64,000 bases of DNA from a virus (Duplodnaviria; Heunggongvirae; Uroviricota; Caudoviricetes). Below the pieces are notes generated by a model. That model did no database searches. It was not told the DNA's origin and worked only from the letters and a program-made list of their open reading frames with translations. A program made the translations under genes and the position numbers. The first letter of the stretch is position 1; every line of letters begins with the position of its first letter. Positions 22,730 through 58,402 of this stretch are shown piece by piece. The stretch lies in IMG/VR virus record IMGVR_UViG_3300042992_000089; one strand, 5' to 3'.

Positions 22730-22747
22730 AATATTAAATTATAAAAA

Positions 22748-24087: not shown

Positions 24088-24556
24088 TGTTTCCTATGTG
24101 TTTTACAGGCACTCCTGCATATTTTTGATAAGATTCGAGTTTACTTTTTTTAATAACTACACTATTCATGCCAATCATAATTCCTTCTGGTAAGGTTGTT
24201 TTTTGATGAATAGCTGCTCCCATACCAAGGTTCACTTTATTTCCTACAGTACAAAATCCAGCTAATTTAGAACCAGCACTCATAGTTACACTAGACCCAA
24301 GAATACAATCATGAGCTACATAAGCATGTTTCATAAGATAACAATTATTACCAATTACAGTTTGTCTTTCTGCTCCTGAATCAATAGTGACCATTCCAGT
24401 AAGTATAGTACCACTTTTAATTAAAACACCTTTATCTTCATTCTCTTTACCTTTCCATTCAGGTGGCATTCCTATAACACAATAAGGACCTATGTATACA
24501 TCGTCCTCTATTGTAACGTTATTGCCAATAACAGCTGTACTATGTATTGTTTTCAT
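24062..24556 (-). CDS. Hexapeptide-repeat (left-handed beta-helix) acyl/acetyltransferase
   Basis: It has tandem [LIV]-G-x-x-x-x hexapeptide repeats (VIGNNVTIEDDVYIGPYCVIG ... TVGNKVNLGMGAAI). Confidence 0.7.
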   Translation of the reverse strand: MKTIHSTAVIGNNVTIEDDVYIGPYCVIGMPPEWKGKENEDKGVLIKSGTILTGMVTIDSGAERQTVIGNNCYLMKHAYVAHDCILGSSVTMSAGSKLAGFCTVGNKVNLGMGAAIHQKTTLPEGIMIGMNSVVIKKSKLESYQKYAGVPVKHIGNNDAAKNNN

Positions 24557-35254: not shown

Positions 35255-37603
35255 TTAAATTGTTTGTAATTCTTCAATTGTGTCTTGTGTCAATGTCTCC
35301 TCTAAAGGAGCATCTTCTGTTAATATGAGCTTGTAATGCTCTAGGTTTACCTTTTGCTTGTGATACTTAAATAGATCAACAATAGCTGTAATAAAAGGAC
35401 TATCACTATTTCCACTTCTGTATCCCATTCTATCTAATAGTACATTTAAGAATGGTAGCTTAGTAAACACTTCATTAACCTGATTGTAAACTATATATAC
35501 AGGTTGGTCAAACAGGTTATTTTCTTTTGCATGTTCTACAATAAGATTTTTGGTTGTACCATCAGCATAATACATACTGTTATCTCTATGATACTTGTTT
35601 AGTAGTTCTAACTTATCTGCTAGATCATTAGAAATCTCTCTAACAATTTCAATTCTGTTGAATGTTGCTTTCTTATCTTCAAAAAGTCGTTCAATCAAGA
35701 ACTCTGTAGCCATGGTTTTAAATGGTCTGTTTTTACCTTCCATAAATTTATCTATTGTTATCCAGTTATGTAAATCAGCTTTCTGTAAGTTATCTATTGT
35801 AGCTTGGGCAACAATAACAAAGTTTGCTTGTCCATTAAATACTGACCATAGTCTATCTAATTCTTTCTTATCAGACTCTTTACCATAAATGTGTAACTTA
35901 GATGACCTATGGATGTCTTCCATCTTAAATGTTGTAGGAACAAACTTACAATATTGATCAGACATATGTATTTCCATTTTTGTACCCACCTTACCAGAGA
36001 ACTCACCTTTCATTCTTATCTTCTTAGGACCCTTTATAGCTGCAACTGATATCTTCATTCTCTTAGCCTTCTGAGCATCCTTAAATGATTGTGGAATCTC
36101 AATAGCATCTACATCTATAAAGTCTTTAGCATACAGCCCCACTACATATTGAAACTCTTGAATAACTTCTCTCCATTGAGATTTTGGATACATATTAAGT
36201 CCTAATACAGAGTCATAATACTTAGCATAATCTACTTGACCAGTTTTACTTCTAAGTTTAAATGGTGATTTCTTAACAAAATATATGTGTTTATTATCTG
36301 GTAGAATAGTTCTTAGATAGTCTTGTTTACCTTTAGAAAGCTCATTTTCATAAATATATACACCACCAAAGTTATAAGCTGTAAAGTCTGACATTCTTAG
36401 ATACTCGTGATAATAATTTTTCATAGTTTGAAACTTACCAGTAAATCTGTATTTAAACTTGTATTCAGCCAAGATATACTCCTTTGATTTTACAGCAAGT
36501 CTTTCTAAATTCAGCAACTTTATGTTATCTAGTTTAGGCTGTGCTACAGGTGTAGAAGAATGAATTACAAGATCATCTATACAAACTTCATCGTCTGTAC
36601 CCTTGTACCAAGACTTAATATACTTGTTGTTTTTGCTATAGAATTGCATAATAGCTTTGATATCACTTTGTGTAGTGATGGCTTCATTAAACTTTTCCAT
36701 AAATACATTAGCCACTGTAGCTATCTTGTTAAGAATAGTTTCTTTAGCTTCTTGTGTATATCTAATAGCTTCTCTGTTTGGTGTAGGGAATAATCCATCA
36801 CTAAGACTGAATCTCAAAGCCATTTTGATACCTATTCTGCTTATGCCAAGCTTATCCCAATCAATAGGATAACTAACATTGTCTAAACAAAGATGCATGT
36901 CACTATTAGTAGCTAAGCTAGAATATTGGAAATGTTCAGCTCTGTGTATTGTGAAGTCATTGGTAACAGAATAACTACCCATTGGTTCTACATCAAAATA
37001 GACATTCTCAAAATAAGCCAATTGCTCTTTGATTTTATTAACAAAATTGTATCTATCATAGTAGGTTACAGGTACAATCACCTTTACACCATTTGGTTCG
37101 TCTGTTGCCCTTTCGTACAACAAGTCAATACTATTTGTATCTTCTCCTTCGTACATCATGTACTTACGTTCCATACCATCTTTTCTAGCTATAAAGTAGA
37201 AGCTAGAACTGTATGCCAATGGAGCCTTGAAACCAAGACCCATCATACCTAGTTCTGTGTTGCTGTTACGCTTAGTTGACTTACCATACTTACTGATGAT
37301 ATTTACTACATCATCTGCATCTAAGCCAATACCAAAGTCTTCAACAGCAAATTCATATGTATCTGCCTGATTGTTTCTCTTAAATGAAACAATGATAGGC
37401 TTGTCACTTCCAGCTCTTCTGTGACTATCTAGTGCATTGGATGCACATTCTCTGATAGTAGAGCCTATTGAATCTGAATAAAGATTCTTACTTAACATCT
37501 GCATCAGAACCTGAGCAGAATCTAAGTCTAGTGACATTTTCACAGTTTCCTGTGTGGTTCCTTCTTGAAGGATGTGTGATTCTGTTTGTTTTTCGAGTAT
37601 CAT
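35255..37603 (-). CDS. GHKL-family ATPase with an Hsp90-like N-terminal ATP-binding domain
   Basis: RECASNALDSH (N-box, compare Hsp90 ELISNASDALDK), EDFGIGLD (G1, compare DTGIGMT) and GMMGLGFKAPLAYS (G2, compare GQFGVGFYSAFLVA). The protein is 782 aa. Confidence 0.65.
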   Translation of the reverse strand: MILEKQTESHILQEGTTQETVKMSLDLDSAQVLMQMLSKNLYSDSIGSTIRECASNALDSHRRAGSDKPIIVSFKRNNQADTYEFAVEDFGIGLDADDVVNIISKYGKSTKRNSNTELGMMGLGFKAPLAYSSSFYFIARKDGMERKYMMYEGEDTNSIDLLYERATDEPNGVKVIVPVTYYDRYNFVNKIKEQLAYFENVYFDVEPMGSYSVTNDFTIHRAEHFQYSSLATNSDMHLCLDNVSYPIDWDKLGISRIGIKMALRFSLSDGLFPTPNREAIRYTQEAKETILNKIATVANVFMEKFNEAITTQSDIKAIMQFYSKNNKYIKSWYKGTDDEVCIDDLVIHSSTPVAQPKLDNIKLLNLERLAVKSKEYILAEYKFKYRFTGKFQTMKNYYHEYLRMSDFTAYNFGGVYIYENELSKGKQDYLRTILPDNKHIYFVKKSPFKLRSKTGQVDYAKYYDSVLGLNMYPKSQWREVIQEFQYVVGLYAKDFIDVDAIEIPQSFKDAQKAKRMKISVAAIKGPKKIRMKGEFSGKVGTKMEIHMSDQYCKFVPTTFKMEDIHRSSKLHIYGKESDKKELDRLWSVFNGQANFVIVAQATIDNLQKADLHNWITIDKFMEGKNRPFKTMATEFLIERLFEDKKATFNRIEIVREISNDLADKLELLNKYHRDNSMYYADGTTKNLIVEHAKENNLFDQPVYIVYNQVNEVFTKLPFLNVLLDRMGYRSGNSDSPFITAIVDLFKYHKQKVNLEHYKLILTEDAPLEETLTQDTIEELQTI

Positions 37604-38692: not shown

Positions 38693-39454
38693 TTAAAATA
38701 TTGATAATTGATTAAATGTTGCTTCTTGAGCTTCCCATGGTGCTGTTGCAATCTCTGAGTATTCATTAAAGAACTTATGTGCTTTGATGTGACTCTCCAT
38801 CCATTGAGCTGGATGTGTTTCTTTCATAGCAAATGTTGTATAGTTGTACAACTCCCATAAGCTATCTTTAGCACCATAATCATGTGTAGGAGCTTTTAAC
38901 TCTCTACTGATGATGTTTAACTGTGTAGATGTAATGAACTGCTCTTCTAGCATCATTCTACCAACTAACTCAGCTTTGGTACGCTTGGTGATTTCTATTT
39001 GCTTCATAGACTCTCTTTGCTTTTGCATAATTGTAAATGCTTCACCTGCTTGTGCAATATATTCTACAATAGCACCTGGTGTAAATGATTGAATCTCACC
39101 TACATGCTTTCTTTTAAACGCACCAAAGTCACCTGATACACAACCATTAGAACAAACTAATATACGTGTACCAATAGCAAACTTTAATGTAAGCTGTTTG
39201 TTGTAGCTATTCTGCCAGCCAATCTGTAATTGCATCTCGCTGTCTGCTACATTGCTGATAGAGAATCTACCATTAGCAACCTGACCATCCACTGCAGAAG
39301 AATAAGTTTCTTTGTCTAACTTGAATCCTGCTTTCTCAATACTGTTTAATGTAAGATCAATCAATTGTGAATGACTCACTGGTTTATATGTACGTGTTTG
39401 TACAGGAACTGGTGTATTCATTATCAGTTCCTTTGTGGTGTTAAATGTATCCAT
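38693..39454 (-). CDS. Hypothetical protein (DUF932-like phage/plasmid replication-associated protein, weak)
   Basis: ORF immediately downstream of the primase-like gene. Confidence 0.4.
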   Translation of the reverse strand: MDTFNTTKELIMNTPVPVQTRTYKPVSHSQLIDLTLNSIEKAGFKLDKETYSSAVDGQVANGRFSISNVADSEMQLQIGWQNSYNKQLTLKFAIGTRILVCSNGCVSGDFGAFKRKHVGEIQSFTPGAIVEYIAQAGEAFTIMQKQRESMKQIEITKRTKAELVGRMMLEEQFITSTQLNIISRELKAPTHDYGAKDSLWELYNYTTFAMKETHPAQWMESHIKAHKFFNEYSEIATAPWEAQEATFNQLSIF

Positions 39455-40458
39455 TATAACAGGTTTTTACTTTTTAAATATGTTTCTATTGCTTGTAATC
39501 CATGGGCTTTTGCAAGGTCAGCCCAATCTTTAATCCCTTCTGCTAGATACTGACGTGGGACGTTAGTATATTCAAAGTCAAACATCTTTGTAATCTGTAC
39601 AGAATTCTGTACACCTACGTCATCTGCATCAAAAGATAGGATTTGTCTGTCAGAGTTAGCTTTTAGATATTCTACATTCTCATGTGAGAAACATCCAAGA
39701 CCTTCGTTCTGGACAGCACAGCTGCAGGGGAATAACTTCTTCATCACCATATAGTCTTTCTTACTCTTGTTGATGAATGCTACGCTGCAGTTCTTTATGT
39801 TCTCTTTACCATCCATTGCTGTGATAGGTACATTGTTAGGCATCCATTTGTGTTTCTTATCTGCAAATGGTCTATATATCTTCCAATACTGTCCCTCATA
39901 GAGATAGCCAAACCTGAGTTCGTTCTCTCCTAGTGGAAATCTTTGCCTATTAAGATATAGTTCTTTGATAGAATAGATATTGTTATCTCTAAGGTCTTGT
40001 ATGTCCTGGTGATACTGGGCCCAATAGTCTAGCTCATCTTGTGTAAACTTTCTAGTCTTTACTTGGATGAGAGAGTATCTCTTCTCTATCTCAGGTTGTT
40101 TATACTCAGATATAATCTTCTTATATTCTCCTGTCATCACACCTGTAGAGAAACCAAGACCAAAGTCTCTATCTATCATCTTCAAAGTATCACTGACGCT
40201 AGGAAGATTATGTAGCATTTGTACAAAGTTGAAACAATCACCACGTTTACTAGTGTCTGTATAGTCTATAAACATAAGATAGCCCAACTTGTTACCAATC
40301 ATGAATGATGGATTGTTCTCATGTCTGAATGGAGAATAGGTCACCCTATTAATCTTCCAGTCTTGGTGAGGCATATAATATCTAAATATATCATACTCTG
40401 ATATCCTGCTTAGAATAGCATCTATGGATATCTTTACTTTTCTTTCTCCACTAATCAT
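39454..40458 (-). CDS. Primase-like protein with a degenerate DnaG-type zinc-ribbon motif
   Basis: YSPFRHENNPSFMI corresponds to DnaG CPFHxExTPSFxV, but Cys and His are replaced. It sits upstream of the helicase cluster. Confidence 0.35.
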   Translation of the reverse strand: MISGERKVKISIDAILSRISEYDIFRYYMPHQDWKINRVTYSPFRHENNPSFMIGNKLGYLMFIDYTDTSKRGDCFNFVQMLHNLPSVSDTLKMIDRDFGLGFSTGVMTGEYKKIISEYKQPEIEKRYSLIQVKTRKFTQDELDYWAQYHQDIQDLRDNNIYSIKELYLNRQRFPLGENELRFGYLYEGQYWKIYRPFADKKHKWMPNNVPITAMDGKENIKNCSVAFINKSKKDYMVMKKLFPCSCAVQNEGLGCFSHENVEYLKANSDRQILSFDADDVGVQNSVQITKMFDFEYTNVPRQYLAEGIKDWADLAKAHGLQAIETYLKSKNLL

Positions 40459-40472
40459 AATGTAAGGTTAAT

Positions 40473-40497
40473 GAAAAGGCCCCACAAGTGTGAGGCC
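40473..40497 (-). terminator. Candidate terminator (minus strand)
   Basis: On the minus strand, GGCCTCACACTTGTGGGGCC is followed by TTTTCATT. It lies downstream of the 291-aa gene. Confidence 0.35.
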
Positions 40498-40519
40498 AAT
40501 TCTTATTTAGAGGGGCACA

Positions 40520-41395
40520 CTAAAAGTCAGAATCATCATCTGCAATCACCTTGTCAGATGCTACTAAATTGTCTCCAGAACTATATTCTTTCAACTCTTT
40601 AAATGTGAAATAGTCTTTACAACCATACTCACCTACTACGTTCAATACAAAACGCTCGTGAGGTTTTAAGTCTTTAGAAGACTTCTGACGTAAAGCACTA
40701 ACTGAGTCAGCTCTATTATAGTCTACCAATCTGAAAGCTTTGATGCTATATGGAGGTAAGAATGCTTTGTTATATACATTCTGATACTCTTTTACACCAT
40801 CTTCTGTTTCTTTACTACTGATAGTCGCTAAAGCTACAACGTTGTTAGCCCATTCACCAATTATTTGTTCTTTAAGTTCTTTAACATTACCCTTAATTAG
40901 TTTGTTAAACTCTAATTGTAATGTAGATTTCTTACTACTGAAGTCAATGTTACTTAACCAAGAGCGTAAGAAGTTATATAAATCTTCTTCACCAACAAAT
41001 GCTACACGATTCTCTCTTTCTTTGAACCATGTTGGTAAGTTGTTTGGACTATCTGCCCAAGTACAACGTCCTACATTATTGATGTATTGTTTCTTTGTTC
41101 CATCTTTATTCTCTTTCTCTTTGTTCTCAATAAAGAAAGTCAATTTGTATTTCTCTTCTGTCTTAACTTCTGCTAACCAAAAGTCAATACGCAATCTAGC
41201 ATTGCCATCTTTGCTTGTACCTAAGTAGTCAGTAGCTTTGCTTTCTTCTTTTAGCTCTCTGCCTAAGACATCAGCATACTCTTCTCTTGTTGGGTTTACT
41301 GCAATCACTTTTGCTTCAAATAGACCAACCTTTTTAGGAAAGTCTTTTTCTTCAAATACTGGGTTTTCTCTTTTTTCTCCTCCAATGTTACTCAT
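40520..41395 (-). CDS. Hypothetical protein (possible ssDNA-binding partner of the adjacent ATPase)
   Basis: This is an ORF adjacent to the Sak4-like ATPase. Position alone is my basis for the SSB suggestion. Confidence 0.35.
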   Translation of the reverse strand: MSNIGGEKRENPVFEEKDFPKKVGLFEAKVIAVNPTREEYADVLGRELKEESKATDYLGTSKDGNARLRIDFWLAEVKTEEKYKLTFFIENKEKENKDGTKKQYINNVGRCTWADSPNNLPTWFKERENRVAFVGEEDLYNFLRSWLSNIDFSSKKSTLQLEFNKLIKGNVKELKEQIIGEWANNVVALATISSKETEDGVKEYQNVYNKAFLPPYSIKAFRLVDYNRADSVSALRQKSSKDLKPHERFVLNVVGEYGCKDYFTFKELKEYSSGDNLVASDKVIADDDSDF

Positions 41396-41416
41396 TTTTT
41401 CTGATTTTAATGTTTA

Positions 41417-42088
41417 TTAATTGTAATATTCGTCAATTGAATCGACTACTTGTTGTAAGTTATTAGGTATCTTGATATCTGCAAACATTCCATCAGGACT
41501 CTTTGCTGGATACTTCTTAAATCTATTAGTTACAAAATTATATGTGGCTGAGCCATCTTTGCTCTCTTCCACGTGTGTGTATAAACACACTGTAAGTAAA
41601 CCTTCTAACACAATTTGGTTATCAATTAACTTACCTGCTGTTTTGATTTTGTATCCTACAATCTCACCACCATCTTCAATAGTTTCAGGGTGTGTAAAAT
41701 AGAACACTTTTAAATCATCACGTAATCTTCTAGCTTCTCTAAATAGTTCCACCATATCTTTAGCCATAATGGTAAACTTGGTGAATCCTACTTCTGTAGC
41801 TCTTGCCAACATATTGAATCCCATAATGTAATTAGAGTCTTCAATAATGATGTTCTTGATGTGTGGTGCTTTCTCTGAGATGGTCTTTAACAGACGTGTA
41901 ATCTCATTTGCATCATCCACTTCTTTGTAGTTTTTACTCTCTGAATTGTACAACTTCTCTGCTCCTTTGAAAGGTAATTCTTTCTTAGCAACATTGATGA
42001 TGTAAGTCTCTTTGGGATCTAAATGTTTCACTGATGTTGACTTGCCAGTGCCTGTAGCACCAACAATTCCAATTAATTTGCTTGCCAT
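41417..42088 (-). CDS. P-loop ATPase, Sak4/AAA_24-like (recombination or replication mediator)
   Basis: The N-terminal Walker A is GIVGATGTGKST, NIIIEDSNY is Walker B-like, and the size (223 aa) is typical of phage Sak4. Confidence 0.5.
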   Translation of the reverse strand: MASKLIGIVGATGTGKSTSVKHLDPKETYIINVAKKELPFKGAEKLYNSESKNYKEVDDANEITRLLKTISEKAPHIKNIIIEDSNYIMGFNMLARATEVGFTKFTIMAKDMVELFREARRLRDDLKVFYFTHPETIEDGGEIVGYKIKTAGKLIDNQIVLEGLLTVCLYTHVEESKDGSATYNFVTNRFKKYPAKSPDGMFADIKIPNNLQQVVDSIDEYYN

Positions 42089-42092
42089 GTTT

Positions 42093-42305
42093 TTACTGAT
42101 TTGTTTCCTCCAAAGGTAACGTAATTTCTTGAGATTTCAAAATATTTTTTTGATGTTTTAACAAATCTGGATTAGCAACAATCTCATTATAAAACGTCTC
42201 TGCAGACTCTCTGTGGGCAAACCATTTGATTGTATAATCATCTGCTTTCACTGCATACATTGTGCCATTTCCTGGATTGATTTCTTCTATTAACTCTAGT
42301 TTCAT
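42093..42305 (-). CDS. Hypothetical small protein
   Basis: This ORF shares its MKLELI N-terminus with the ORF at 52223. Confidence 0.4.
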   Translation of the reverse strand: MKLELIEEINPGNGTMYAVKADDYTIKWFAHRESAETFYNEIVANPDLLKHQKNILKSQEITLPLEETNQ

Positions 42306-43399
42306 AAATATGTTATTTTTTTACTGTCAAAAAACTCTAATGCTTTTCTAAGCCATTTCTTCTCTACATCTTCTGTAGAACAGATGATGTAAATGTGTGC
42401 CTTTTTATCAGGTGTGTTATACTCCATAGCCATGCATCTGTTAATCTTTTGTGCAAGATTCTCAGCGTTGCTATCAAAGTAGTTGATTATCACTCTATTA
42501 AGAGGCTTATATGTAACTCCTGTATTACCTATCTTTACAACAGCCAGGTGATTACCTTTACCAGATGCAAAGTCTTCAAACACTTGTTTGTCACCTGCTT
42601 TGCTATGATATACAGGAATGCCTAATGCATCTGCAATCTTTGTGACACCACAGAATACTAGAATACGCTCGTCTTTATGTTTTGCTAGAAGTTCTTTAGT
42701 CTTGTTAAGTTTTGCAAGACTGTTCTGAACAATTCTCATCCTAGCAAGACGTAAAAACATTGTACTCTTTCTCTGTTTCTCCATCTGATCTATAACCCAA
42801 CCATAAGCATCAAATTGCTTCTTTTCAGTTTTCCATTTGCCTTTATAGTTGTTGTCCACTTTGTTATCTAATGCTACAGAAATCACTTTGATCTCGTAGT
42901 CTGTAATAACACCTTCTTTAATTGCTTGTTCTATGGGATATGTAGCTAAAACTGGTAGCTTTAACTCTAGTCCTAATGTTTCTTCTGTATTTGATGTTAA
43001 AGTTCCTGTAAGACCTAACACTCTTTTGCAACATAATTCCTTTACAGCCTCTATTTGTGCTTCTGAGAGTAAATGTATCTCATCAAGTACAACTAGGTCA
43101 TAAAAGCATTCTGTGTGCTTTTTAATAGATAAATGTGTAGTATAAGTTATATTACTATTCTTATACTTTCTAGTTAAGAAGTCTTGTTCCCATGCTGATT
43201 TAATCTTTAGATCAGGGTAGGCGATCAATATACTAATATCCTTGGGTAATTGCTCCAATATATTGATAGTTGTATATATTTTTCCAAACCTAGGACATAG
43301 ATTAAGAATACCAGACTCTTCATGATCTAAAAATATCTTAGCAAACTGTTGCTGCCTCTTATCTCGTAATGTAAGGGTGTGGGGCTTTTGGTTTGCCAT
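42302..43399 (-). CDS. SF2 DEAD/DExH-box helicase
   Basis: LCPRFGKIYT is motif I (a variant Walker A), LVVLDEIHLL is the DEIH box, and LTGTLTSN is a motif III-like element. Confidence 0.65.
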   Translation of the reverse strand: MANQKPHTLTLRDKRQQQFAKIFLDHEESGILNLCPRFGKIYTTINILEQLPKDISILIAYPDLKIKSAWEQDFLTRKYKNSNITYTTHLSIKKHTECFYDLVVLDEIHLLSEAQIEAVKELCCKRVLGLTGTLTSNTEETLGLELKLPVLATYPIEQAIKEGVITDYEIKVISVALDNKVDNNYKGKWKTEKKQFDAYGWVIDQMEKQRKSTMFLRLARMRIVQNSLAKLNKTKELLAKHKDERILVFCGVTKIADALGIPVYHSKAGDKQVFEDFASGKGNHLAVVKIGNTGVTYKPLNRVIINYFDSNAENLAQKINRCMAMEYNTPDKKAHIYIICSTEDVEKKWLRKALEFFDSKKITYL

Positions 43400-43568
43400 A
43401 GCTTATAATTGTTGTAAATGACCAAAATAAATACTCAGCATTCACAGCTACGTATGGGTCATGTTTTTGTATGTTGTTCATCAAACTGACTGTAGGGAAC
43501 AACACCACTTGCCACCAATGGCTCTTTTTAGTGGGTAATGTATTATACATTTTGAAGTTTAATTTCAT
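43359..43568 (-). CDS. Hypothetical small protein
   Basis: ORF overlapping the helicase start. Confidence 0.3.
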   Translation of the reverse strand: MKLNFKMYNTLPTKKSHWWQVVLFPTVSLMNNIQKHDPYVAVNAEYLFWSFTTIISYGKPKAPHPYITR

Positions 43569-43569
43569 G

Positions 43570-44631
43570 TTACTTGTTTAAAAAGAAAGTTTTATTAATA
43601 ATCTCATTGTATACGTTTTCATTCATATACTTTACTTTTGGTAGCTCTTTGAACATACCAATCTGACCTAGGAAACCTAGACCAATTCTTACATCATCCT
43701 CACCATATGAATTCTTAATGAGTCTTAATGATCTAAAGTACTTTGCACCATACTCATCTCTAAGTTTGTTCAGGTCATATCCTGATGGGTCTTGTACTTT
43801 ATATCTCATAGGGTCAAACAATGCTAGGACAACGTCAGCATCGTTCTGGGTTTGTGAACTGTCAGCAAAGTCTTCCAACTGTGGTTCTACATCACCATTC
43901 TTTAGTCTCATTGGACTAGAAATGTCTCTGTTGAACTGACTGACAATCACAGGACTATAACCATACATATCTCTAGCATATCTAAGCTCATCTGACATTT
44001 TATCTATCAGTTGCTTCTTAGTAGGATAGTCTTTTGTTGGTTTCAATAAACCTATATGATCAATAACAACAATAGTTAGTTCACTCTCATTATTAGGAAT
44101 GTATCTTTTGTTATACTGATCTACATCTTCTATTACACCATTTTGTAATGCATGTTCTTTTAGATGTTTAGATATGCCTATTGGGTTATCTGGTCCATCA
44201 ATGATTGTAATGACATCTTTCATGTTCTCTAAGTAATCTTCATACATCAAGAATAGATCGTGCTCATCACTCGTCATCTTCTCTGTCCAACCTAATAGCT
44301 TTGGCACAGGAATAATTACTCCTTGGTCTAGAAATATCTTTCTACTGACCCACTTGGCATACTTGTACGTTCTACTACGCTCCATTGAGCGATATATGAT
44401 GCGTAACTTCAGTTCTGGAGGTTTGTTATCAATGTACCAATCAAATGGATTTAAAACATAAGCGTCATCAATGAAGCTAGTTTTACCTGATCCAGTGAGA
44501 CCACCCACAAGTGTGTACATAGACTTCCTAATGCCAATGTATCTGTTCAATCTATCAAAGCCCATAGGTATACCATTGTTTCTACCATCTAGGCCAGCTT
44601 GAACTTCTCGTTTTAAATCTTCAAAACTCAT
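43570..44631 (-). CDS. dnaB: DnaB-like replicative helicase (RecA-fold C-terminal domain)
   Basis: LVGGLTGSGKTSF is the Walker A motif, VVIDHIGLL is Walker B, and the layout is DnaB/T7 gp4-like. Confidence 0.75.
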   Translation of the reverse strand: MSFEDLKREVQAGLDGRNNGIPMGFDRLNRYIGIRKSMYTLVGGLTGSGKTSFIDDAYVLNPFDWYIDNKPPELKLRIIYRSMERSRTYKYAKWVSRKIFLDQGVIIPVPKLLGWTEKMTSDEHDLFLMYEDYLENMKDVITIIDGPDNPIGISKHLKEHALQNGVIEDVDQYNKRYIPNNESELTIVVIDHIGLLKPTKDYPTKKQLIDKMSDELRYARDMYGYSPVIVSQFNRDISSPMRLKNGDVEPQLEDFADSSQTQNDADVVLALFDPMRYKVQDPSGYDLNKLRDEYGAKYFRSLRLIKNSYGEDDVRIGLGFLGQIGMFKELPKVKYMNENVYNEIINKTFFLNK

Positions 44632-45254
44632 ATGTCCATTCCTTTAATTGGTTCGTCAGCCTCTTTAATTACCACACCCTGATTGATAAGCTCTATATAG
44701 TTTTGAAATGAGCGTTGATTCAAATAAGTAAGACTGCCTTGCATGTAACTTAATCTATTTGTACCTGTCTTGAAAGAATTCTCTTTCTTTTGCGTCACTT
44801 CATATTCTAATGCTGCTATGAGCTGATCAACTGTGTATTCTCCTTCAGCAAGGATAGCATCTAGTTTTAGTTGGCAGTCATCTTTGTAAACACGCAGTGT
44901 TCTACCACCTGAGAAGCTTTTACCTTTATGTGTAAAGATATCAGTTCCTGGATATGCAGCCCACCATCTCTCAAACTCAGCAAAGGTTTGTGTTTTCTTT
45001 ACAATCTTACTAGTCTTAGCACGTGTGTTCATGAATTCCAATAGATTCCTACCAAGGACTGTAATCTTAAATTGCTCAGACACTAATCCTTTTCTACGCA
45101 ATGTCTGACATAGCATATCTGTCTTTGCTCCTCCTTCAGCTAATGTCTTGATGTCAAATTCTTCATCTATCAGCTTGAGAAGAAATACCATGTCTAATGT
45201 ATATCCATCTTTGAGTAGTTGCTCAAAATGGTAAGGGGTTACTTTGATGTTCAT
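44628..45254 (-). CDS. Hypothetical protein
   Basis: ORF. Confidence 0.45.
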   Translation of the reverse strand: MNIKVTPYHFEQLLKDGYTLDMVFLLKLIDEEFDIKTLAEGGAKTDMLCQTLRRKGLVSEQFKITVLGRNLLEFMNTRAKTSKIVKKTQTFAEFERWWAAYPGTDIFTHKGKSFSGGRTLRVYKDDCQLKLDAILAEGEYTVDQLIAALEYEVTQKKENSFKTGTNRLSYMQGSLTYLNQRSFQNYIELINQGVVIKEADEPIKGMDI

Positions 45255-45468
45255 GTTCTCTGTTTAGTATTTTGTCTTTATCAATTACTACTATCTGAGC
45301 AGGCAGTTTTATTCTTCTAAACTCCTCTTCAAGTATCTGTTGTGTCTCTTGCAAATATACTAAATCTTTGAGAGATTCTCTCTCCCAATCTTCATTAATT
45401 TGTAGATTTTTCATCTTTTTTATATTGTGCGTTGTTCCAAAAGAATGGACATGCCACTGTAATAACAC
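45223..45468 (-). CDS. Hypothetical small protein
   Basis: ORF. Confidence 0.3.
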   Translation of the reverse strand: MLLQWHVHSFGTTHNIKKMKNLQINEDWERESLKDLVYLQETQQILEEEFRRIKLPAQIVVIDKDKILNREHEHQSNPLPF

Positions 45469-45622
45469 CTAGTGTTACATCATGTTCATCTAACATCATG
45501 TTCACTTTATATGGGGGATCTGAAAAATATGATTGTCCCAACTCATCAGGAATTGCTGTATATCTATGACAATTTAGTCTTAACATACAACTACCACCTT
45601 TACAACATGAAATATCTGGCAT
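45395..45622 (-). CDS. Small Cys-rich protein
   Basis: It contains CCKGGSC...C..C..ACPFFW. Confidence 0.35.
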   Translation of the reverse strand: MPDISCCKGGSCMLRLNCHRYTAIPDELGQSYFSDPPYKVNMMLDEHDVTLGVITVACPFFWNNAQYKKDEKSTN

Positions 45623-45623
45623 C

Positions 45624-45899
45624 TTATTTGTTTTTATGATTAATGTATATACGTAGTGTCTTATGTGTATCTTCTATCAAAGCTATCACTTTGGCATTCT
45701 TATCCCAATTGTAATACTTAACTACACCATCTTCTACAACTTCAATTTGTGTAACTAGTGTAGTGTTTAATATATTTTTACTAGGTAGAGGTAGTTTGTT
45801 TAGGGATATGTCCCTTGTACTCATTGGTCTGTGATAAGGATATTTTCCTGACATATGTTTAGTTTTAATTATTCTGCTGCATAACCAAAGAATATCCAC
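45624..45899 (-). CDS. Hypothetical small protein
   Basis: ORF. Confidence 0.35.
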   Translation of the reverse strand: MDILWLCSRIIKTKHMSGKYPYHRPMSTRDISLNKLPLPSKNILNTTLVTQIEVVEDGVVKYYNWDKNAKVIALIEDTHKTLRIYINHKNK

Positions 45900-46426
45900 T
45901 CACCATCTCTTTCTGTTGGTGATTTTTTGTATGTTATCTTAGCTACTAAGTTGTCACCTTTCTCTAAGAACTTCTTGATTACTATTGATGTAGTTACTTG
46001 ATACTTTTCTGTATATTTACGAGCGTCTTTTACAGCATCCCCTTTTGTATCCCATGAACCAATAACATGATCACCACGTTGAACAACATATTTAAGTACC
46101 CACTTCTTCGTACCTGGTGTAACTATGTGCTCCACTTGAGATTGAGTCTTGTTCTTATTACCTACAGGTTGTACAACACATATAGCTGAACAATCACGTT
46201 TGTTCATAGCATGACTATCAAATCTGTCACGTATGTAAGCAGATACATCATTAAACTTACTTTTCTTATATGCTTCTGTTTCATCTCTAAATCCATGGGT
46301 AGTACTAATTGTACCATTGTAGCCATCTTGATGACCATACTCAAGTTCAGCTTCTTCACAAGCTCTGTTATATGCTTCTTCTGCTGTTTTACCACCATAT
46401 CTTGCTTTAAATTGACATGCTCCCAT
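45869..46426 (-). CDS. Hypothetical protein
   Basis: ORF. Confidence 0.45.
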   Translation of the reverse strand: MGACQFKARYGGKTAEEAYNRACEEAELEYGHQDGYNGTISTTHGFRDETEAYKKSKFNDVSAYIRDRFDSHAMNKRDCSAICVVQPVGNKNKTQSQVEHIVTPGTKKWVLKYVVQRGDHVIGSWDTKGDAVKDARKYTEKYQVTTSIVIKKFLEKGDNLVAKITYKKSPTERDGEWIFFGYAAE

Positions 46427-46437
46427 AATTATTTATT

Positions 46438-46623
46438 TTATCTGCCATTCCAGGCAGGTGATGTAAATGAAATTCCTCCTTCTGTTCTATGATTGTTATT
46501 AATCTGATTGTCAGATGGTTCATCGTCTTCTTCATCTTCCCAATCGCAATGATCCCTACATTCAGGACAAATGTCTATCTCAGGCATACGAGAGTATGCC
46601 CCACAACATGTTGAATAAGCCAT
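46438..46623 (-). CDS. Small zinc-ribbon-like acidic protein
   Basis: It contains CCGAYS...CPECRDHCDWEDEEDDE. Confidence 0.4.
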   Translation of the reverse strand: MAYSTCCGAYSRMPEIDICPECRDHCDWEDEEDDEPSDNQINNNHRTEGGISFTSPAWNGR

Positions 46624-46634
46624 AAATTTTAGTT

Positions 46635-47036
46635 TTATTTTACTTCAATGTGATTCCTACCATCATTCCAATAACTTATGTCACCATACCATACAAAGAT
46701 TTCTTCGTCTGGTTGTATGAGCTTTGTAGCAACAAACTCAAATGTGTTGCGTTCTATGTTGGATCTCCAAGCAGCGTTGGCTGTGTCTGAATGATTATAG
46801 AATGAACCAAACCCACCAGCTACCACTTGTTTCTCCCATCCTGATCCACCACCCTGTGGCCAATTGAATCTGTAATCTATGACACAAGGAGAAACTTCTC
46901 CATTCTTCATACCTACATCAAAAAAGGGACACTCTTCTATGATGTCCCCTTCAAATATTACCTTGTCTGCAAATACTCCCCAGCCATGTATGCTGCTTGG
47001 AGCCATGTAGACTTTTGTTGATTGATAGATACGCAT
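46635..47036 (-). CDS. SET-domain protein (putative protein lysine methyltransferase)
   Basis: HGWGVFADKVIFEGDIIEECPF is the N-SET/GxG region, FYNHSDTANAAW matches NHSCxPN, and EEIFVWYGD matches ELxFDY. At 133 aa it is the size of minimal viral SET proteins. Confidence 0.6.
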   Translation of the reverse strand: MRIYQSTKVYMAPSSIHGWGVFADKVIFEGDIIEECPFFDVGMKNGEVSPCVIDYRFNWPQGGGSGWEKQVVAGGFGSFYNHSDTANAAWRSNIERNTFEFVATKLIQPDEEIFVWYGDISYWNDGRNHIEVK

Positions 47037-47038
47037 AA

Positions 47039-47311
47039 TTAATCTTTTATTCTCAAACCAAACTGTAAGTCAAACCATTGAAAGTTTGCCTCAGCTCTTG
47101 ATTTGTTTATTTTAAATACTTTCTTCATTAATGGAATAGCGTAAGCTTTAAACTGATCATGTTGTTCTTGTGTCATAGTCCATTTGCTATACCATTCTTT
47201 AGTCATAAATGCTTCTTGTGTAGACTTACCAATCATTCCTAATTGATAGTCTACTAAATGATCACCTATGTTCTCTCTATTTATCTTTGCCATGCTTTTT
47301 GATTTCTTCAA
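47039..47311 (-). CDS. Hypothetical protein
   Basis: ORF. Confidence 0.4.
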   Translation of the reverse strand: MKKSKSMAKINRENIGDHLVDYQLGMIGKSTQEAFMTKEWYSKWTMTQEQHDQFKAYAIPLMKKVFKINKSRAEANFQWFDLQFGLRIKD

Positions 47312-47501
47312 TTACTTCATCCCAGTATTGTGGATCATTATCTAGTCCAGAACCCATCCACATATCTTTGGCTTTTGTATCCATTATTTCATGTGCTGTT
47401 AGCGATGCACAGTCTGCTGCTTTATATATATCTCCAACTATGGATAAATGATTGAGTACGAGATATGCTGCTTTTACTTTTGCTTCCATTGTGTGTCTCA
47501 T
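47277..47501 (-). CDS. Hypothetical protein
   Basis: ORF. Confidence 0.4.
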   Translation of the reverse strand: MRHTMEAKVKAAYLVLNHLSIVGDIYKAADCASLTAHEIMDTKAKDMWMGSGLDNDPQYWDEVIEEIKKHGKDK

Positions 47502-49453
47502 TAGAATAAACTCATTTGATTAGGATTAACAATAACTTTACGTTTCTTACCTTCTAGTTGTATCTTGTGTATTATGCGTTCAGCACGCTCAATATAATAT
47601 GCATGATTGATGTTGTCCAGAGGATGATCTGATGTTAGATGATTACATACATGCATCACCCAATCACCTGCTTCCACTTGTGATACATCAACAGCTGTGC
47701 TATCTGAATTCTCGTTCTTCACCTTCAGTAGCTTCTCTCCTGTATTAGATACATAATATCTAATCAGCTTGTTATAGACTGTCTTCGTCTCTTTGCTGTG
47801 ACCTTCGTAATGAAAGTCTTTACTAGCTTTCTGTCTGAGACAAAAGTCATATATATTTGTATGATTGCGAATGGTATCAGCCACAGGCACGTCATTAACA
47901 AAAAAATGCTCAAGTGCAATAGGGACAACCCTAGCACTCTTATTTTTGTGTAGTTCAAAGTCTGTAAGGAAGTCACCCTTCTTTTTGATTTCGCCATCTG
48001 TTTTGATTGCTAGATAGTCATTTACTGTCGAGAATATAATCTTAGCATAGTCTGTACGTTCTAACTCATAACTGGTTAGATCCATCCACCACTTGTTAAT
48101 CTCATGCATCTTCTCAACTTTGTCTTTGTGCACCTTGATTGTCACACCATCTGTATTTGCAGATATAATGTTTATACCAGCTAATTCATATGCTTCGATG
48201 AGCATCAGAAGACTTAGTTCTCCTGTGATGGTTGTGAACATTGTGAGCTGTCTGTCATAGATCCAAGACTGCATGTCAGAAGACTTACCATAAACTGAAT
48301 TGACTGCGAGTTTGAGTGCTCCAACAATACCTTTAATCTTTTTATCCTTTTTAGCAAGAGGCTTGAGCTCCAATCTTTTATCAAACATGGTTTTGTATCC
48401 TCTAAGGAACTCAGGGCCCAAATGATGAGGATATTTACCATTATTAATAATGATAGCAGGGTAATAACTGGATACATCCCAATCCACAATAATATAATCA
48501 GCATCAGCTTCAAATATCTTAGGCTTGTTCTCTGTATGTAAGCCACCCTTTGCAAAAGTGTATATGTTGTCATAAAACTCTAATGATTCTTTAAATTCAT
48601 CTTTGATAGTTAGTTTCTCTTTGCTAATTGCTTTTAAGAACTGTTGTAGTTTTGGTGTCTGGAATGTAATGTAATCAGCAATACAATGTCTCACCTTTAC
48701 TTCAGTTCTAAACAAGCCTTTCTTTGGTAAATCAGAATATAATATGTTCTTTTCTTGACAATAGAACTTCTTAATCATCTCATCACCAATCTTACTATCA
48801 GAATAGTTTAAACATGGTATGCCAAACTCTTCTTCAATATCTTGTCTGAGCTCTATCTGATTATTGCCCTTATACAATGGATGCTCAGTTTGACCTATTG
48901 TTACCTTGTAGAACTCATAGGTAGCCATAACATCATTCTTACAATAGTCTTTAGTCAGTTGAATCTCTTCATCTGTCATGTTAATCTTTGTATGATGTAT
49001 AGGCATCTCTTCAATGTTCTCTAGATCCATCTCAAACTCTAGTCGTTTCAGTGAGACCATTCTATTCTTGTTATCATAGTGGTTCACTCTGAATACATCT
49101 ATCTGCTTAAGTGTAAGCCATTCTTCTCTGTACTCAGGAAATACATCATAGTTAGCATCATGGATAATATCAGCAGCCTTTTGTGCTATCTTAGCAGCTG
49201 TCTCAAGAGCTGTGAGCTCATGCCAGTTTTCATAGTTACGCAAGATCCACTCAATCACTTGAGAGTCAAAGCGTAAGTTATTATAACCAACCCAATAGTA
49301 TTCAGGATGTTGTTCAATAAATCTCATATACCCATCTAGTTGGTTCTTATCCTTACTCACTTCAAACTCTGTATAAGTTTTGCTCCCAGGATTATATATG
49401 CCAATGAGGAATAACTCCTGCATTGTCTCAATATCATAGATGAGTATATTCAT
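47501..49453 (-). CDS. Family B DNA polymerase with an N-terminal 3'-5' exonuclease
   Basis: YDIET is Exo I, DWDVSSYYPAII is motif A, KLAVNSVYGKSS is motif B (KxxxNSxYG) and ISANTDGVTI is motif C. The protein is 650 aa. Confidence 0.85.
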   Translation of the reverse strand: MNILIYDIETMQELFLIGIYNPGSKTYTEFEVSKDKNQLDGYMRFIEQHPEYYWVGYNNLRFDSQVIEWILRNYENWHELTALETAAKIAQKAADIIHDANYDVFPEYREEWLTLKQIDVFRVNHYDNKNRMVSLKRLEFEMDLENIEEMPIHHTKINMTDEEIQLTKDYCKNDVMATYEFYKVTIGQTEHPLYKGNNQIELRQDIEEEFGIPCLNYSDSKIGDEMIKKFYCQEKNILYSDLPKKGLFRTEVKVRHCIADYITFQTPKLQQFLKAISKEKLTIKDEFKESLEFYDNIYTFAKGGLHTENKPKIFEADADYIIVDWDVSSYYPAIIINNGKYPHHLGPEFLRGYKTMFDKRLELKPLAKKDKKIKGIVGALKLAVNSVYGKSSDMQSWIYDRQLTMFTTITGELSLLMLIEAYELAGINIISANTDGVTIKVHKDKVEKMHEINKWWMDLTSYELERTDYAKIIFSTVNDYLAIKTDGEIKKKGDFLTDFELHKNKSARVVPIALEHFFVNDVPVADTIRNHTNIYDFCLRQKASKDFHYEGHSKETKTVYNKLIRYYVSNTGEKLLKVKNENSDSTAVDVSQVEAGDWVMHVCNHLTSDHPLDNINHAYYIERAERIIHKIQLEGKKRKVIVNPNQMSLF

Positions 49454-54516: not shown

Positions 54517-54867
54517 ATGGAAGCAAAACCAATTGTACAACGACTAAAGACTTCAGTCAATGACAGTATTGTCATGGCTGAGAAGTATTATAGAATCTTG
54601 TCAGCTGTCAATGACCTGAAGCTTACAAAGAGGGAGATACAATTGATAGCCTTTGCTGCTATAAAAGGGAACATCTCTTATGCTAATATACGTAAGGAGT
54701 TTTGTGAAAGATACGACAGTACGTCCCCAGCCATAAATAACATTATCTCCAAACTAAAGAAGATGGGGATATTTGTAAAGGATGGGACAAAGGTGAAGGT
54801 TAATCCCATCATCTTGCTCAACTTTGAGAAAGATCTTGTATTGCAAATAACTCTAGCACATGGATAA
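54517..54867 (+). CDS. Hypothetical protein (possible DNA-binding regulator)
   Basis: An ATG at 54517 gives MEAKPIVQR.... The track start at 54502 is a TTG. Confidence 0.45.
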   Translation: MEAKPIVQRLKTSVNDSIVMAEKYYRILSAVNDLKLTKREIQLIAFAAIKGNISYANIRKEFCERYDSTSPAINNIISKLKKMGIFVKDGTKVKVNPIILLNFEKDLVLQITLAHG

Positions 54868-55246
54868 GCCTATAAGTATGTCTGTCAAGGACTACCTTGT
54901 TAGGACCCTTGCTGTGAAGATGATGATTTCTGAGAAGACAATTGAGACAGTGATAAACCACCAGTTTCAATCTGCCAACGAGGCGATGGACACAAATAAC
55001 AGTATTGAAATCTCTGGGTTTGGGAAGTTTTATTTCAATGAGAAGAAAGCCAAGAAACGTCTAGAAGACTTGACTAGGAAGAAAAACCTAATGCTTGAGT
55101 TCCTAGCCAGTGCTGAAACCTCAGAACAAAAGAAACGTTCCTCTCAGGTGACACTAGAAAAAACAGAAGCTCTGATCAATTTACTAAAAAGTAAAATTAT
55201 ATATGAAGATCAACTTCTCTCAGATTTACGAGGGCTGGAAGAATAA
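54860..55246 (+). CDS. HU/IHF-like (DNABII family) DNA-binding protein
   Basis: The N-terminal helix MSVKDYLVRTLAVKMMISEKTIETV...ANEAM is followed by IEISGFGKFYF, the DNABII GFGxF signature. Confidence 0.5.
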   Translation: MDKPISMSVKDYLVRTLAVKMMISEKTIETVINHQFQSANEAMDTNNSIEISGFGKFYFNEKKAKKRLEDLTRKKNLMLEFLASAETSEQKKRSSQVTLEKTEALINLLKSKIIYEDQLLSDLRGLEE

Positions 55247-56044: not shown

Positions 56045-56363
56045 GAAAACTACATACGTAAATACAGAGCTTGAATGGGCAGAAGTACAGCTAAAGTCTT
56101 GGAAAGCATACGTTGATGCTAATCCACTACATGAATTGAAAGATAGGATTGAGTGGAAACCTACAGCTAAAGGAGGAATGTTACCTATGGTCATAGCCTC
56201 TATTGAAGCTCAAGGTAAGTTTGTCCAAGAGACAATGAAAAACTACCTAGCATTGGTAGAAGTGGTAGATAAGTTAAGAAACATGGAAGAAGCTAAGGTG
56301 GAAGTGAGAGGAAAAGGTGAATTATCAGGAGCTGCTGCTGAGTTCTTAGCAAATAGAAAATGA
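56031..56363 (+). CDS. Hypothetical protein immediately upstream of terL (small terminase candidate by position only)
   Basis: The N-terminus is MATIKKTTYV, and its stop overlaps the terL ATG (ATGA). Confidence 0.35.
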   Translation: MATIKKTTYVNTELEWAEVQLKSWKAYVDANPLHELKDRIEWKPTAKGGMLPMVIASIEAQGKFVQETMKNYLALVEVVDKLRNMEEAKVEVRGKGELSGAAAEFLANRK

Positions 56364-58402
56364 TAGAACTACAAAATATAGATTACAAAGACTGGTTTAT
56401 AAATCAGAAGCGTATTCCTGATAAAGACTCTCAGGAGTGTAAGCCATTCTTTGACTTTCACAGAGAGCTATGTTTAAATGGAGCCATGATGGGGGGTGTT
56501 TATATCAACCCCTTTTTGTATTGGCACCTAAACATATGGCATACAGAGGTAGATGTAATAGATGAAAGAGGAAGGATTGCACAGAAATATGCCAATCCTT
56601 TTTTAAGAGATAATGAATGGCTTGTGACAAATGAAATTGACAGAGCTCAACAAGAAAAGAGGGGCTTAGTCATTCTAGGTATTAGACGTTTTGCCAAGTC
56701 AGTTTTAGAAGCATCCTATATTGCATGGGGTGCAACCTTTGATGAAAACAGTCAGAATATCATAGCAGGCTTAAATGCCCCAGATATAAAACTGATTACT
56801 GATAAGATTGACAAAGGATTGAATTTCATTCCTGAGTATTGGAGATGGCAGAGAATTGAGGACAACTGGAAGAACCAAGTGACTCTAGGTATAAAGACCA
56901 AGTCTGGTGAACGTATCCCATTCTCTTCCATTCTAATACGTAACCTTGATGAAGGTAATAATGAAGAGGCCATTGCAGGTACAAAACCACGTAAATTAAT
57001 TATAGATGAAATTGGTAAAGGAAACTTTCTTAGAGGCTTACAGGCTGCTATTCCAGGTTTCACTACACCCTATGGCTGGGGATGTAGCCCCATACTTACT
57101 GGGACTGGTGGGGACATGAAGAAATTCATGGATGCAAAGAGCTTAATGTTTGACGTAGACAACTTTAACTTCCTTACATATAATAATAGTAAAGATGACA
57201 AACGTATACATGGATTGTTCATCTCTCATAAATATAGAATGGAGGCAAAGGATGATTCTACACTAGGAGCATATTTGAATGAACCATCCACCTCAGACTT
57301 ACACAATGTAAAAATGCTTGTAAGTGATGAAGAAAAGGCAACACAGATTACTAATGATAATTTAGAAAGACTTAAGAAAGCTGGAGATAGAATAGCCTAT
57401 CTAAAAGAAAAGATGTACTATCCTCAGGAAGTGGATGACATTTTCTTAAATGAGGATACTAATATATTTGATATTGACAGTGCTAAGAGACAGAAGTTTA
57501 GATTGTTGCAACAAGAAAGAACAGGAACTCCTGTTATCTTGTTTAATGATGGAGAGAAGATAGCTCATGAGTTTACAGATAAATTACCCATCTCTAACTT
57601 CCCTCTAAAAAACTCAGACCTAAAAGAAGCACCTGTTGTTATATATGAATTCCCTGTGGATAATCCTCCTTATGGATTGTATGTAGCAGGAGTCGATCCA
57701 TATAGACAAGGTAAGTCTGCATATTCAAGTTCACTTGGATCTGTATACATATATAAAAGGATGCATGAAATTTCAGGTGAGAAGTATCAAGATATGTTCG
57801 TAGCTTCGTATTGTGCAAGACCTGATAAGAAAGAAACTTGGGAAGAACAAGCTAGACTTCTTATTAAATACTATAACGCTAGAACTTTGTGTGAGAATGA
57901 TGATATATCATTTATTGAATATATGAAGAGTAAAGGAGATGCACACTACTTAGAGAAACAACCTGAATGGCTTAAAGAGATTGTTCCTAATACCACTGTA
58001 AAAAGAGATTATGGAATTCATCGTTCAAGTCAGAAGATAATTGACTATCTTCACACCTGTTTAAAGAAGTATATGGAAGCTCCAATCTTTGTAGAGAAGA
58101 ATGACGCAGGTGAAGTGATTAGAGAAGTCTTGGGTGTGAGTAAGATATTTGATCCTGTATTGCTTGAAGAGATTATTCAATACAATGATCAAGGTAACTT
58201 TGATAGAATTATTGCTGCAGAGTTAGCAATAGCACAAGCATTAAAGATGGACCCAATAATGGGTAAGATAGGTGGTACATCAGATGAGAGAGTAGCTTCT
58301 ATGTTCAATAAGAAAAGAGGCAATATACTTTTCACTGAAGCTAGGAACAACATGTTTGGACAATCAAGAAATAAATATAAACGAAATAAATTGTTTTCAT
58401 AA
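56360..58402 (+). CDS. terL: Terminase large subunit
   Basis: GLVILGIRRFAKS is a deviant Walker A, PRKLIIDEIG is Walker B, and the C-terminal half has the terminase nuclease layout. Its size (680 aa) and position before the portal also fit. Confidence 0.8.
   Translation: MIELQNIDYKDWFINQKRIPDKDSQECKPFFDFHRELCLNGAMMGGVYINPFLYWHLNIWHTEVDVIDERGRIAQKYANPFLRDNEWLVTNEIDRAQQEKRGLVILGIRRFAKSVLEASYIAWGATFDENSQNIIAGLNAPDIKLITDKIDKGLNFIPEYWRWQRIEDNWKNQVTLGIKTKSGERIPFSSILIRNLDEGNNEEAIAGTKPRKLIIDEIGKGNFLRGLQAAIPGFTTPYGWGCSPILTGTGGDMKKFMDAKSLMFDVDNFNFLTYNNSKDDKRIHGLFISHKYRMEAKDDSTLGAYLNEPSTSDLHNVKMLVSDEEKATQITNDNLERLKKAGDRIAYLKEKMYYPQEVDDIFLNEDTNIFDIDSAKRQKFRLLQQERTGTPVILFNDGEKIAHEFTDKLPISNFPLKNSDLKEAPVVIYEFPVDNPPYGLYVAGVDPYRQGKSAYSSSLGSVYIYKRMHEISGEKYQDMFVASYCARPDKKETWEEQARLLIKYYNARTLCENDDISFIEYMKSKGDAHYLEKQPEWLKEIVPNTTVKRDYGIHRSSQKIIDYLHTCLKKYMEAPIFVEKNDAGEVIREVLGVSKIFDPVLLEEIIQYNDQGNFDRIIAAELAIAQALKMDPIMGKIGGTSDERVASMFNKKRGNILFTEARNNMFGQSRNKYKRNKLFS

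Follow-up and report, generated by a model that had tools for sequence, protein, structure and literature searches.

What would a bacteriophage, whose bacterial host is expected to lack histone H3, do with a SET-family enzyme? Such enzymes are familiar chiefly as writers of eukaryotic chromatin, and among viruses it is in the giant viruses of eukaryotes that they have been studied. The question is raised by a 64,000-nucleotide stretch of DNA from a tailed virus (Caudoviricetes; IMG/VR record IMGVR_UViG_3300042992_000089), here called the window, in which a sequence-only reading had seen a gene for a minimal SET-domain protein at positions 46635-47036 and had suggested that it serves a phage-directed lysine methylation system. 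Judging by the state of its motifs, the protein is very probably a functional protein-lysine methyltransferase dependent on S-adenosylmethionine (SAM, or AdoMet), and comparison with related phages shows that its gene is a sporadic, optional accessory cassette, carried in a slot of the replication module whose content varies.

The SET protein, its fold and its motifs

The open reading frame (ORF) lies at exactly 46635-47036 on the minus strand and encodes 133 amino acids (aa), with a computed isoelectric point (pI) of 4.8; its ATG start is supported by the homologues, which align from residue 1. The protein has two cysteines and a single Pfam domain, and the pre-SET and post-SET cysteine (zinc) clusters are absent. 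Pfam SET (PF00856) matches over its full length, profile positions 1-105 of 105, with E=4.2e-13 and a score of 50.1 bits, where the curated cutoff is 22.4. When all PDB sequences are searched with phmmer, vSET of a chlorovirus (1n3j) ranks first (E=9.6e-8), followed by Plasmodium PFL0690c and S. pombe Set7. AlphaFold2, given 63 homologues, produced a confident model (pLDDT 88.3, pTM 0.82), and a Foldseek search of the PDB with this model gives 350 matches at E<=1e-3, of which the top 50 are all SET or PR domains; the first is again vSET (3kma_A, E=8.6e-9, TM 0.86 normalised on vSET), and EZH2, SETD8, MLL and G9a are among those further down. ORF call, Pfam, PDB sequences and fold thus agree on the minimal SET-domain protein that the sequence-only reading had described.

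The motifs were examined in an alignment of 63 homologues that are 55-94% identical. SET domains are recognised by four motifs, I (GxG), II (YxG), III (RFINHxCxPN) and IV (ELxFDY) (PMC3585878). Motif I, which binds AdoMet, is H17-G18-W19-G20 at 46977-46988 on the minus strand, as are all the motifs given here; H17, G18 and G20 are invariant, and re-translation of these positions returned HGWG, which overlaps the previously noted GWGVFA region. The tyrosine of motif II is the invariant Y55, which aligns with Y50 of vSET and stands in the context Y-R-F, not YxG. It belongs to the segment D54-Y55-R56-F57-N58-W59-P60-Q61 (DYRFNWPQ, 46854-46877) at the start of the variable SET-I loop, where RFNWPQ forms a signature of the phage clade. 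Motif III (NHxxxxN), which contributes to AdoMet binding and to the pseudoknot, is N81-H82-S83-D84-T85-A86-N87 at 46776-46796, so that the NHSxxxN core read earlier is found as NHSDTAN; across the region F79-Y80-N81...N87, Y80, N81, H82 and N87 are invariant and S83 is present in at least 90% of the homologues. The ELxxDY-like string of the earlier reading corresponds to motif IV, E111-E112-I113-F114-V115-W116-Y117 at 46686-46706, in which E112 is invariant, as is Y117, the conserved active-site tyrosine. The C-terminal tail is Y122-W123-N-D125-G126-R127 (YWNDGR, 46656-46673), of which YW is common to vSET (Y109-W110) and DGR is specific to the phage clade. In full, the residues invariant in all 63 sequences are H17, G18, G20, F22, Y55, R56, F57, N58, P60, Y80, N81, H82, N87, E112, Y117, G118, Y122, W123, D125 and R127. 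We consider the motif strings at this ORF to be far beyond chance. A SET profile match and intact SAM-binding residues had been set beforehand as tests, and both are present, the one at full length in Pfam and the other as motifs invariant in the 63 homologues.

SAM-to-lysine chemistry is suggested by membership in the SET family together with the intact motifs, and the description of the protein as a putative lysine methyltransferase holds up in so far as both the SAM-binding and the catalytic motifs are preserved. The gene is under purifying selection, with a ratio of non-synonymous to synonymous substitution (dN/dS) of 0.19-0.25, about 0.2, against the closest relatives (L001, L005-L008), and the amino-acid changes that separate it from close relatives cluster in the SET-I loop, G62-W67. 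The Phe/Tyr switch position, two residues before the conserved tyrosine of motif IV (PMC3585878), is occupied by V115. By analogy with the Set1 mutants Y1052V/F/A (PMC3585878), V115 would permit multiple lysine methylation.

Among solved structures, vSET (A612L of Paramecium bursaria chlorella virus 1; 1n3j/3kma) is the best match in both sequence and structure. It is likewise viral, consists of a single SET domain without zinc clusters (119-133 aa for the two proteins), and has the GxG, the NHS, the tyrosine of motif IV and the C-terminal YW in common with the phage protein. The resemblance to chlorovirus SET proteins claimed earlier thus stands as regards the minimal domain and the closest solved structure, but not as close evolutionary kinship: identity to vSET is only 28%, and bacterial SET proteins of the SAR116 group are closer. 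The phage SET-I loop is also seven residues longer, with RFNWPQ, and the DGR tail is added. vSET is dimeric and methylates H3K27 of its eukaryotic host, whereas the host here is bacterial and expected to lack H3; that the phage protein also dimerises is hinted at by tandem and fused copies, described below. A different comparison is offered by BFVD, where entries are already named 'SET domain containing protein [uncultured Caudovirales phage]'. One of these, A0A6J5L8Y2 (UniProt/BFVD), is an automatically annotated phage mini-SET at 33% identity and TM 0.84, but it belongs to another, more distant subfamily than the SET protein of the window.

A cassette that comes and goes

The phage itself has no near-identical DNA among GenBank phages. 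Its large terminase, a 680-aa ORF at 56360-58402, best matches Leptolyngbya phage Lbo-JY46 (39.8%), then the Cellulophaga phages phi17:2 and phi4:1 (32%) and crAss-like phages (about 27%); the ORF at 58402-60990 encodes a portal of P22 type, to which crAss-like portals are about 25% identical; and the 650-aa DNA polymerase (47501-49453, minus strand), for which Pfam has no match at E<=0.01, matches phrog_1252 (E=6.5e-144) and shares about 30% identity with polymerases from Acinetobacter, Cellulophaga phi14:2 and crAss-like phages. On the strength of these terminase, portal and polymerase matches we regard the window, whose GC content is about 35%, as a distant, aquatic, crAss-like tailed phage. 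The marine virus AG-345-E15 was considered as a relative and rejected, as apart from one 87.5% match to a DUF6321 protein it has just two weak matches in common with the window.

The SET gene is part of a co-directional replication module on the minus strand (39454-49453) that includes primase, a Sak4-like annealing protein, an SF2 helicase, a DnaB-like helicase and the DNA polymerase. Upstream, a conserved 90-aa ORF (47039-47311, minus) has its stop 2 nt before the SET ATG, and downstream, 11 nt past the SET stop, lies a 61-aa cysteine-rich, acidic ORF (46438-46623, minus) that carries the cysteines CC...CPEC...C and an acidic stretch, DWEDEEDDE. This small ORF is not coupled to SET, since it is kept in some relatives that lack SET (L113, L114, L134) and is absent from two that possess it (L001, L005). 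Promoter and terminator motifs around SET are not in excess, their counts being those expected from shuffled sequence; this lack of a local signal, the minus-strand layout and the gaps of 2 and 11 nt suggest that SET is co-transcribed with the replication genes. The replication block also encodes a 782-aa protein with a GHKL (HATPase_c) ATPase domain (35255-37603, minus).

Searching IMG/VR with the DNA polymerase identified 193 relatives, and the place of SET was compared in the best 80 of these (72-95% identity). The flanking genes are kept in 80 of the 80, and SET is found in none. The slot, defined as the interval that separates the 90-aa ORF from the conserved gene after it and equivalent to window positions 46624-47038, measures only 7-15 nt in about 20 of the relative loci and is filled by small unrelated ORFs in others. 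In one (L114, 7763-8389) a 208-aa 2OG-Fe(II) oxygenase takes the place of SET, and between this enzyme and the oxygenase that the window encodes at 11606-12301 the identity is 40% (E=1e-54). Among the slots compared, that of the window and those of five further loci are the only ones with SET. The sequences flanking the slot are conserved among relatives, and at the DNA level the boundaries are clean: L113 runs from ...AAAGATT straight to AAAATTATGGCTTATTC..., between which the window has the 402-nt SET gene, so that in L113 the 61-aa ORF directly follows the 90-aa ORF.

Beyond these close relatives, 89 SET loci were found in IMG/VR, and the SET clade was found on viral contigs only. A search of 5.8 billion proteins returned 284 relatives, and most of the best 120 stand alone, with a length of about 130 aa; when 1.84 billion cluster representatives were searched with a profile, 33 clusters matched at E<=1e-30, and 2052 did so at E<=1e-10; among GenBank phages, relatives occur in just two records, both from a 735-kb uncultured phage and 45% identical; and PHROGs has no family for the protein. 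By ORF clustering, the SET loci fall into at least four genomic backgrounds (crAss-like, T4-like and two jumbo types), and the same clade recurs at 51-67% identity in the T4-like and jumbo backgrounds. Loci of the window's own type (group A; L001, L005-L008) have a constant order of 90-aa ORF, SET and a 183-aa ORF. The majority (group B) are T4-like myoviruses, recognised by Pfam matches to sheath, baseplate, gp13 and gp19, with SET at a divergent junction beside an SNF2-type helicase; we set this helicase aside as a functional partner because several loci have other genes after SET there. Two further groups are jumbo-type: in group C, whose contigs measure 68-274 kb, SET is flanked by WavE-like and sulfotransferase genes, and in group D, on contigs of up to 295 kb, it follows genes for DUF6625, a hexapeptide transferase and an FkbM methyltransferase. 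Group E (L050, L074) has a T4-like background with SET at another position. The GC content of all phage SET loci is 30-37%.

SET is also found in duplicate and in fusion. Tandem SET gene pairs occur in five group B loci (L026, L033, L057, L059 and L061, about 10 kb into each), and three of the pairs (L026, L057 and L059, the last at 8003-8410 and 8407-8805) have a divergent upstream copy without the C-terminal YW...DGR tail. Four single proteins (P0128, P0131, P0145, P0156) contain two SET domains. Such copies might form a heterodimer or pseudo-dimer. Tandem genes, SET-SET fusions and the degenerate paralogue without YW...DGR all fit a vSET-like dimeric unit, and by analogy with vSET the working unit is probably a dimer. 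SET is further fused to GT9 and FkbM domains in P0129, to PhyH in P0126 and to Methyltransf_24 in P0138, some of which may be fusions produced by gene calling.

In a neighbour-joining tree, 65 distinct phage SET sequences are monophyletic with respect to 23 bacterial sequences and vSET, and each of groups A, C, D and E forms a clade of its own nested among group B, a topology that would fit roughly one transfer of SET per lineage. Taken with the unrelated backgrounds, the sequences indicate horizontal movement of the cassette among aquatic phages that are unrelated to one another. A single-protein scan of 185,579 GTDB species genomes found no close relative, and a profile-pattern scan of the GTDB genomes gave 26 loci at 31-40% identity, nearly all from SAR116/Puniceispirillaceae; as that scan rested on two peptide patterns, these are the closest cellular relatives provisionally. 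The SAR116 proteins (L085-L110) are stand-alone mini-SETs of 117-147 aa with the same motifs, but they are chromosomal, in a conserved neighbourhood of transport and metabolism (TRAP transporter, Gate-domain protein, acyltransferase/GNAT, subtilase, PfkB kinase), their GC content is 42-58% against that of the phage loci, and they lack the RFNWPQ and DGR signatures and fall outside the monophyletic phage clade.

Candidate substrates

The sequence-only reading had placed the substrate within the phage itself, in an array of H1-like, lysine-rich proteins. The array exists, as seven tandem ORFs at 20568-23418 on the plus strand (17-25% lysine, pI 10.1-11.3), but the likeness to H1 does not: no linker-histone Pfam match was found in these ORFs, and the one searched against the PDB (20568-21038) had no match, so that we rejected an identity as H1 or linker histone and regard the proteins as lysine-rich in composition only. 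A single one of them has a family match (22340-22729, DUF6321), the PHROG matches are all of 'unknown function', and several begin with MA(T)xKKAQxG. The C-terminal 45 aa of ORF 20568-21038 (GMKNGGMLKRADGSYSKRGLWDNIRANKGSGKKPT...) are 83-95% identical in many of the matches listed, from at least 566 IMG/VR stretches, and DUF6321 occurs in 530 GenBank phage records, being 60-88% identical in cyanophages and pelagiphages. Conservation of a lysine-rich module this high across unrelated phages seems unusual. The K-rich domains are accordingly counted in 530 GenBank records and more than 566 IMG/VR contigs, against 2 and 89 for SET.

The array has its own syntenic block, in which a 338-aa ORF, a DUF5856 ORF and a 97-aa ORF precede the K-rich genes in ten related loci. 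The DUF5856 ORF (19567-19971, plus), just upstream of the array, matches phrog_858 ('starvation-inducible transcriptional regulator', 'DNA binding protein') and is conserved together with the array in relatives. One 74,367-bp contig carries both a K-rich array (L221) and a SET-less slot, with a gap of 14 nt (L124). In the window the K-rich genes lie 24 kb from SET on the opposite strand, and in the other lineages that carry SET the array is absent from the 10 kb on either side of it. Because the array is kept in a SET-less relative, the slot varies and the K-rich modules are commoner, we take the K-rich proteins to be independent of SET, and SET to be accessory. The K-rich proteins could still be methylated opportunistically when SET is present, the one point in favour being that they occur in the same genome. 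An HU-like protein had also been proposed, and one is indeed encoded at 54860-55246 (plus), though its match to Bac_DNA_binding (E=1.7e-9) covers profile positions 3-60 of 90, the N-terminal part of the HU fold only; it has a weak match to Anabaena HU (1p51). It was found by motif search after several small ORFs of the window had been scanned for HU with no match. Target motifs of the vSET type, ARKS, are absent from the window's predicted proteins.

A second set of conceivable substrates belongs to the particle. Three collagen-like (Gly-X-Y) ORFs on the plus strand (174-1688, 1713-4547 and 16891-17859) contain 19-21% glycine and 1-2% lysine; at the first two the local GC content is raised to 0.42-0.45, with spurious ORFs in several frames. 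A modification island on the minus strand occupies 5598-13391 (DUF6445, GT1, GT2, an 887-aa GT1, the 2OG-Fe(II) oxygenase and a GT9 heptosyltransferase) and 23452-25295 (GT2, a hexapeptide acyltransferase and GT2). The island adjoins the collagen-like fibre genes and resembles the dioxygenase/glycosyltransferase neighbourhoods of PMC2938197. Directly after the portal, at 60990-61520 (plus), the phage encodes an SPFH/Band 7 protein (E=1.4e-25), an unusual position for this domain.

What the SET protein may do

The reading that we propose is that SET is an active, minimal, single-domain, SAM-using lysine methyltransferase, probably dimeric like vSET, which would be transcribed together with the replication genes, ahead of or during DNA synthesis, and not with the virion genes, and whose target would be a basic protein present in every infected cell, most likely one of the host. 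RFNWPQ and YWNDGR, which we call substrate-side by their correspondence to known SET proteins, are invariant across phages whose virion and replication proteins are unrelated, and the SET family is uniformly acidic (median pI 4.8); it is from this invariance and the acidity of the enzyme that a common basic host target suggests itself. The leading candidate would be a nucleoid-associated protein such as HU. Nucleoid proteins come first because the sole characterised prokaryotic SET substrates are of this kind, cpnSET of Chlamydia pneumoniae methylating the H1-like Hc1 and Go1-SET of Methanosarcina mazei methylating MC1-alpha (PMC3980110). These two are cellular genes with substrates shown by experiment, and are likened to the phage protein by function, as prokaryotic SETs acting on basic DNA-associated proteins, and not by sequence. 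Methylation would then tune the organisation of host DNA and protein, or another host function, to the benefit of the phage without being essential to it. An active cassette that methylates a basic, likely nucleoid-associated, host protein appears to us the best explanation of the data, with the balance for and against it evenly poised. Two observations pull away from it: two jumbo lineages place SET among glycan- and protein-modifying enzymes, sometimes fused to them, and the exchange of SET for an oxygenase at its slot groups it with accessory modification enzymes.

The chromatin-like system of the sequence-only reading, in which SET methylates the phage's own K-rich or HU-like proteins or both, has in its favour that an acidic enzyme and very basic candidates occur in one genome and that Hc1 and MC1-alpha are substrates of the same general type. 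Methyl-lysines also protect the lysine-rich mycobacterial proteins HBHA and LBP from proteolysis. That the array persists on a contig whose slot is empty, and that all 80 of the closest polymerase relatives do without SET, nevertheless leaves a methylation system built on the K-rich proteins unsupported; the far wider spread of their domains, their absence within 10 kb of SET in other lineages, their lack of H1 homology and their distance from the replication module in which SET resides point the same way, and we judge this explanation improbable. If SET instead belonged to a toolkit of accessory enzymes (glycosyltransferases, 2OG-Fe(II) oxygenases, FkbM methyltransferases, sulfotransferases) that decorate proteins of the virion or cell surface, its targets would be lysines in structural proteins, methylated for example against proteases or lysine-directed host defences. 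The neighbours of the jumbo SETs (WavE-like, sulfotransferase, DUF6625, hexapeptide transferase, FkbM), the fusions to GT9 and FkbM, PhyH and Methyltransf_24, the oxygenase in the L114 slot and the window's own island beside its fibre genes all argue for it, and collagen-like or tail-collar proteins have been proposed as the targets of co-encoded bacterial dioxygenases and sulfotransferases (Iyer et al. 2010, PMC2938197). In the window, however, SET sits in the replication module, outside the island, and the collagen-like proteins offer little lysine; the FkbM adjacency comes from one lineage and may reflect shared ancestry, and some of the fusions are possibly gene-calling artefacts. Surface decoration strikes us as an unlikely purpose.

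Two further explanations were weighed. Among the substrates of SET enzymes in eukaryotes are Rubisco, ribosomal proteins and EF1A, and the phage enzyme might likewise act on a host protein outside the nucleoid, such as a ribosomal protein, an elongation factor, RNA polymerase or a metabolic enzyme. Conservation across phage lineages counts equally for such a target, and the SAR116 mini-SETs stand in ordinary metabolic and transport neighbourhoods with no link to the nucleoid, but nothing speaks specifically for it, and the data fit it and a nucleoid target alike; taken by itself we think it rather doubtful. Very improbable indeed is that SET is a non-catalytic binding module of SET fold or a decaying gene. 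Its dispensability in most relatives and the tail-less upstream paralogue of three tandem pairs would be consistent with this, but the cofactor and catalytic motifs are invariant across the 63 sequences, dN/dS is low, and the ORF is full length in every lineage.

Returning to the host-directed reading, we would tentatively extend it to the whole clade, as a possible but not a likely generalisation: the phage SET proteins may constitute a mobile host-manipulation enzyme that methylates a conserved bacterial protein, HU or another abundant basic protein. A variant proposes that SET and the 2OG-Fe(II) oxygenase form a phage-borne pair of lysine-directed modifying activities, as suggested by their exchange in the same slot and by the PhyH-SET fusions.

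The surprise of the finding is limited in that the gene is dispensable and is already automatically annotated as a SET-domain protein in databases, many of its relatives having been so labelled by JGI. Phage SET proteins are thus already labelled, and none is characterised: a literature search on phage SET enzymes or phage-driven lysine methylation returned nothing relevant, and the word 'phage' is absent from the 2014 review of bacterial SET proteins (PMC3980110). What the comparison adds is that an intact SET enzyme circulates as a mobile cassette in at least four unrelated groups of aquatic phages whose hosts are histone-free. The role of lysine methylation in phage infection is thereby open to experiment, as phages with and without SET are near-identical around the locus and the enzyme is small and soluble with clear catalytic residues. 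To our knowledge, protein modification by phages has so far mainly meant ADP-ribosylation, phosphorylation and acetylation. If the proposal is true, this would be the first bacteriophage to rewrite host proteins by lysine methylation, and that lysine-methylation arm would be new biology.

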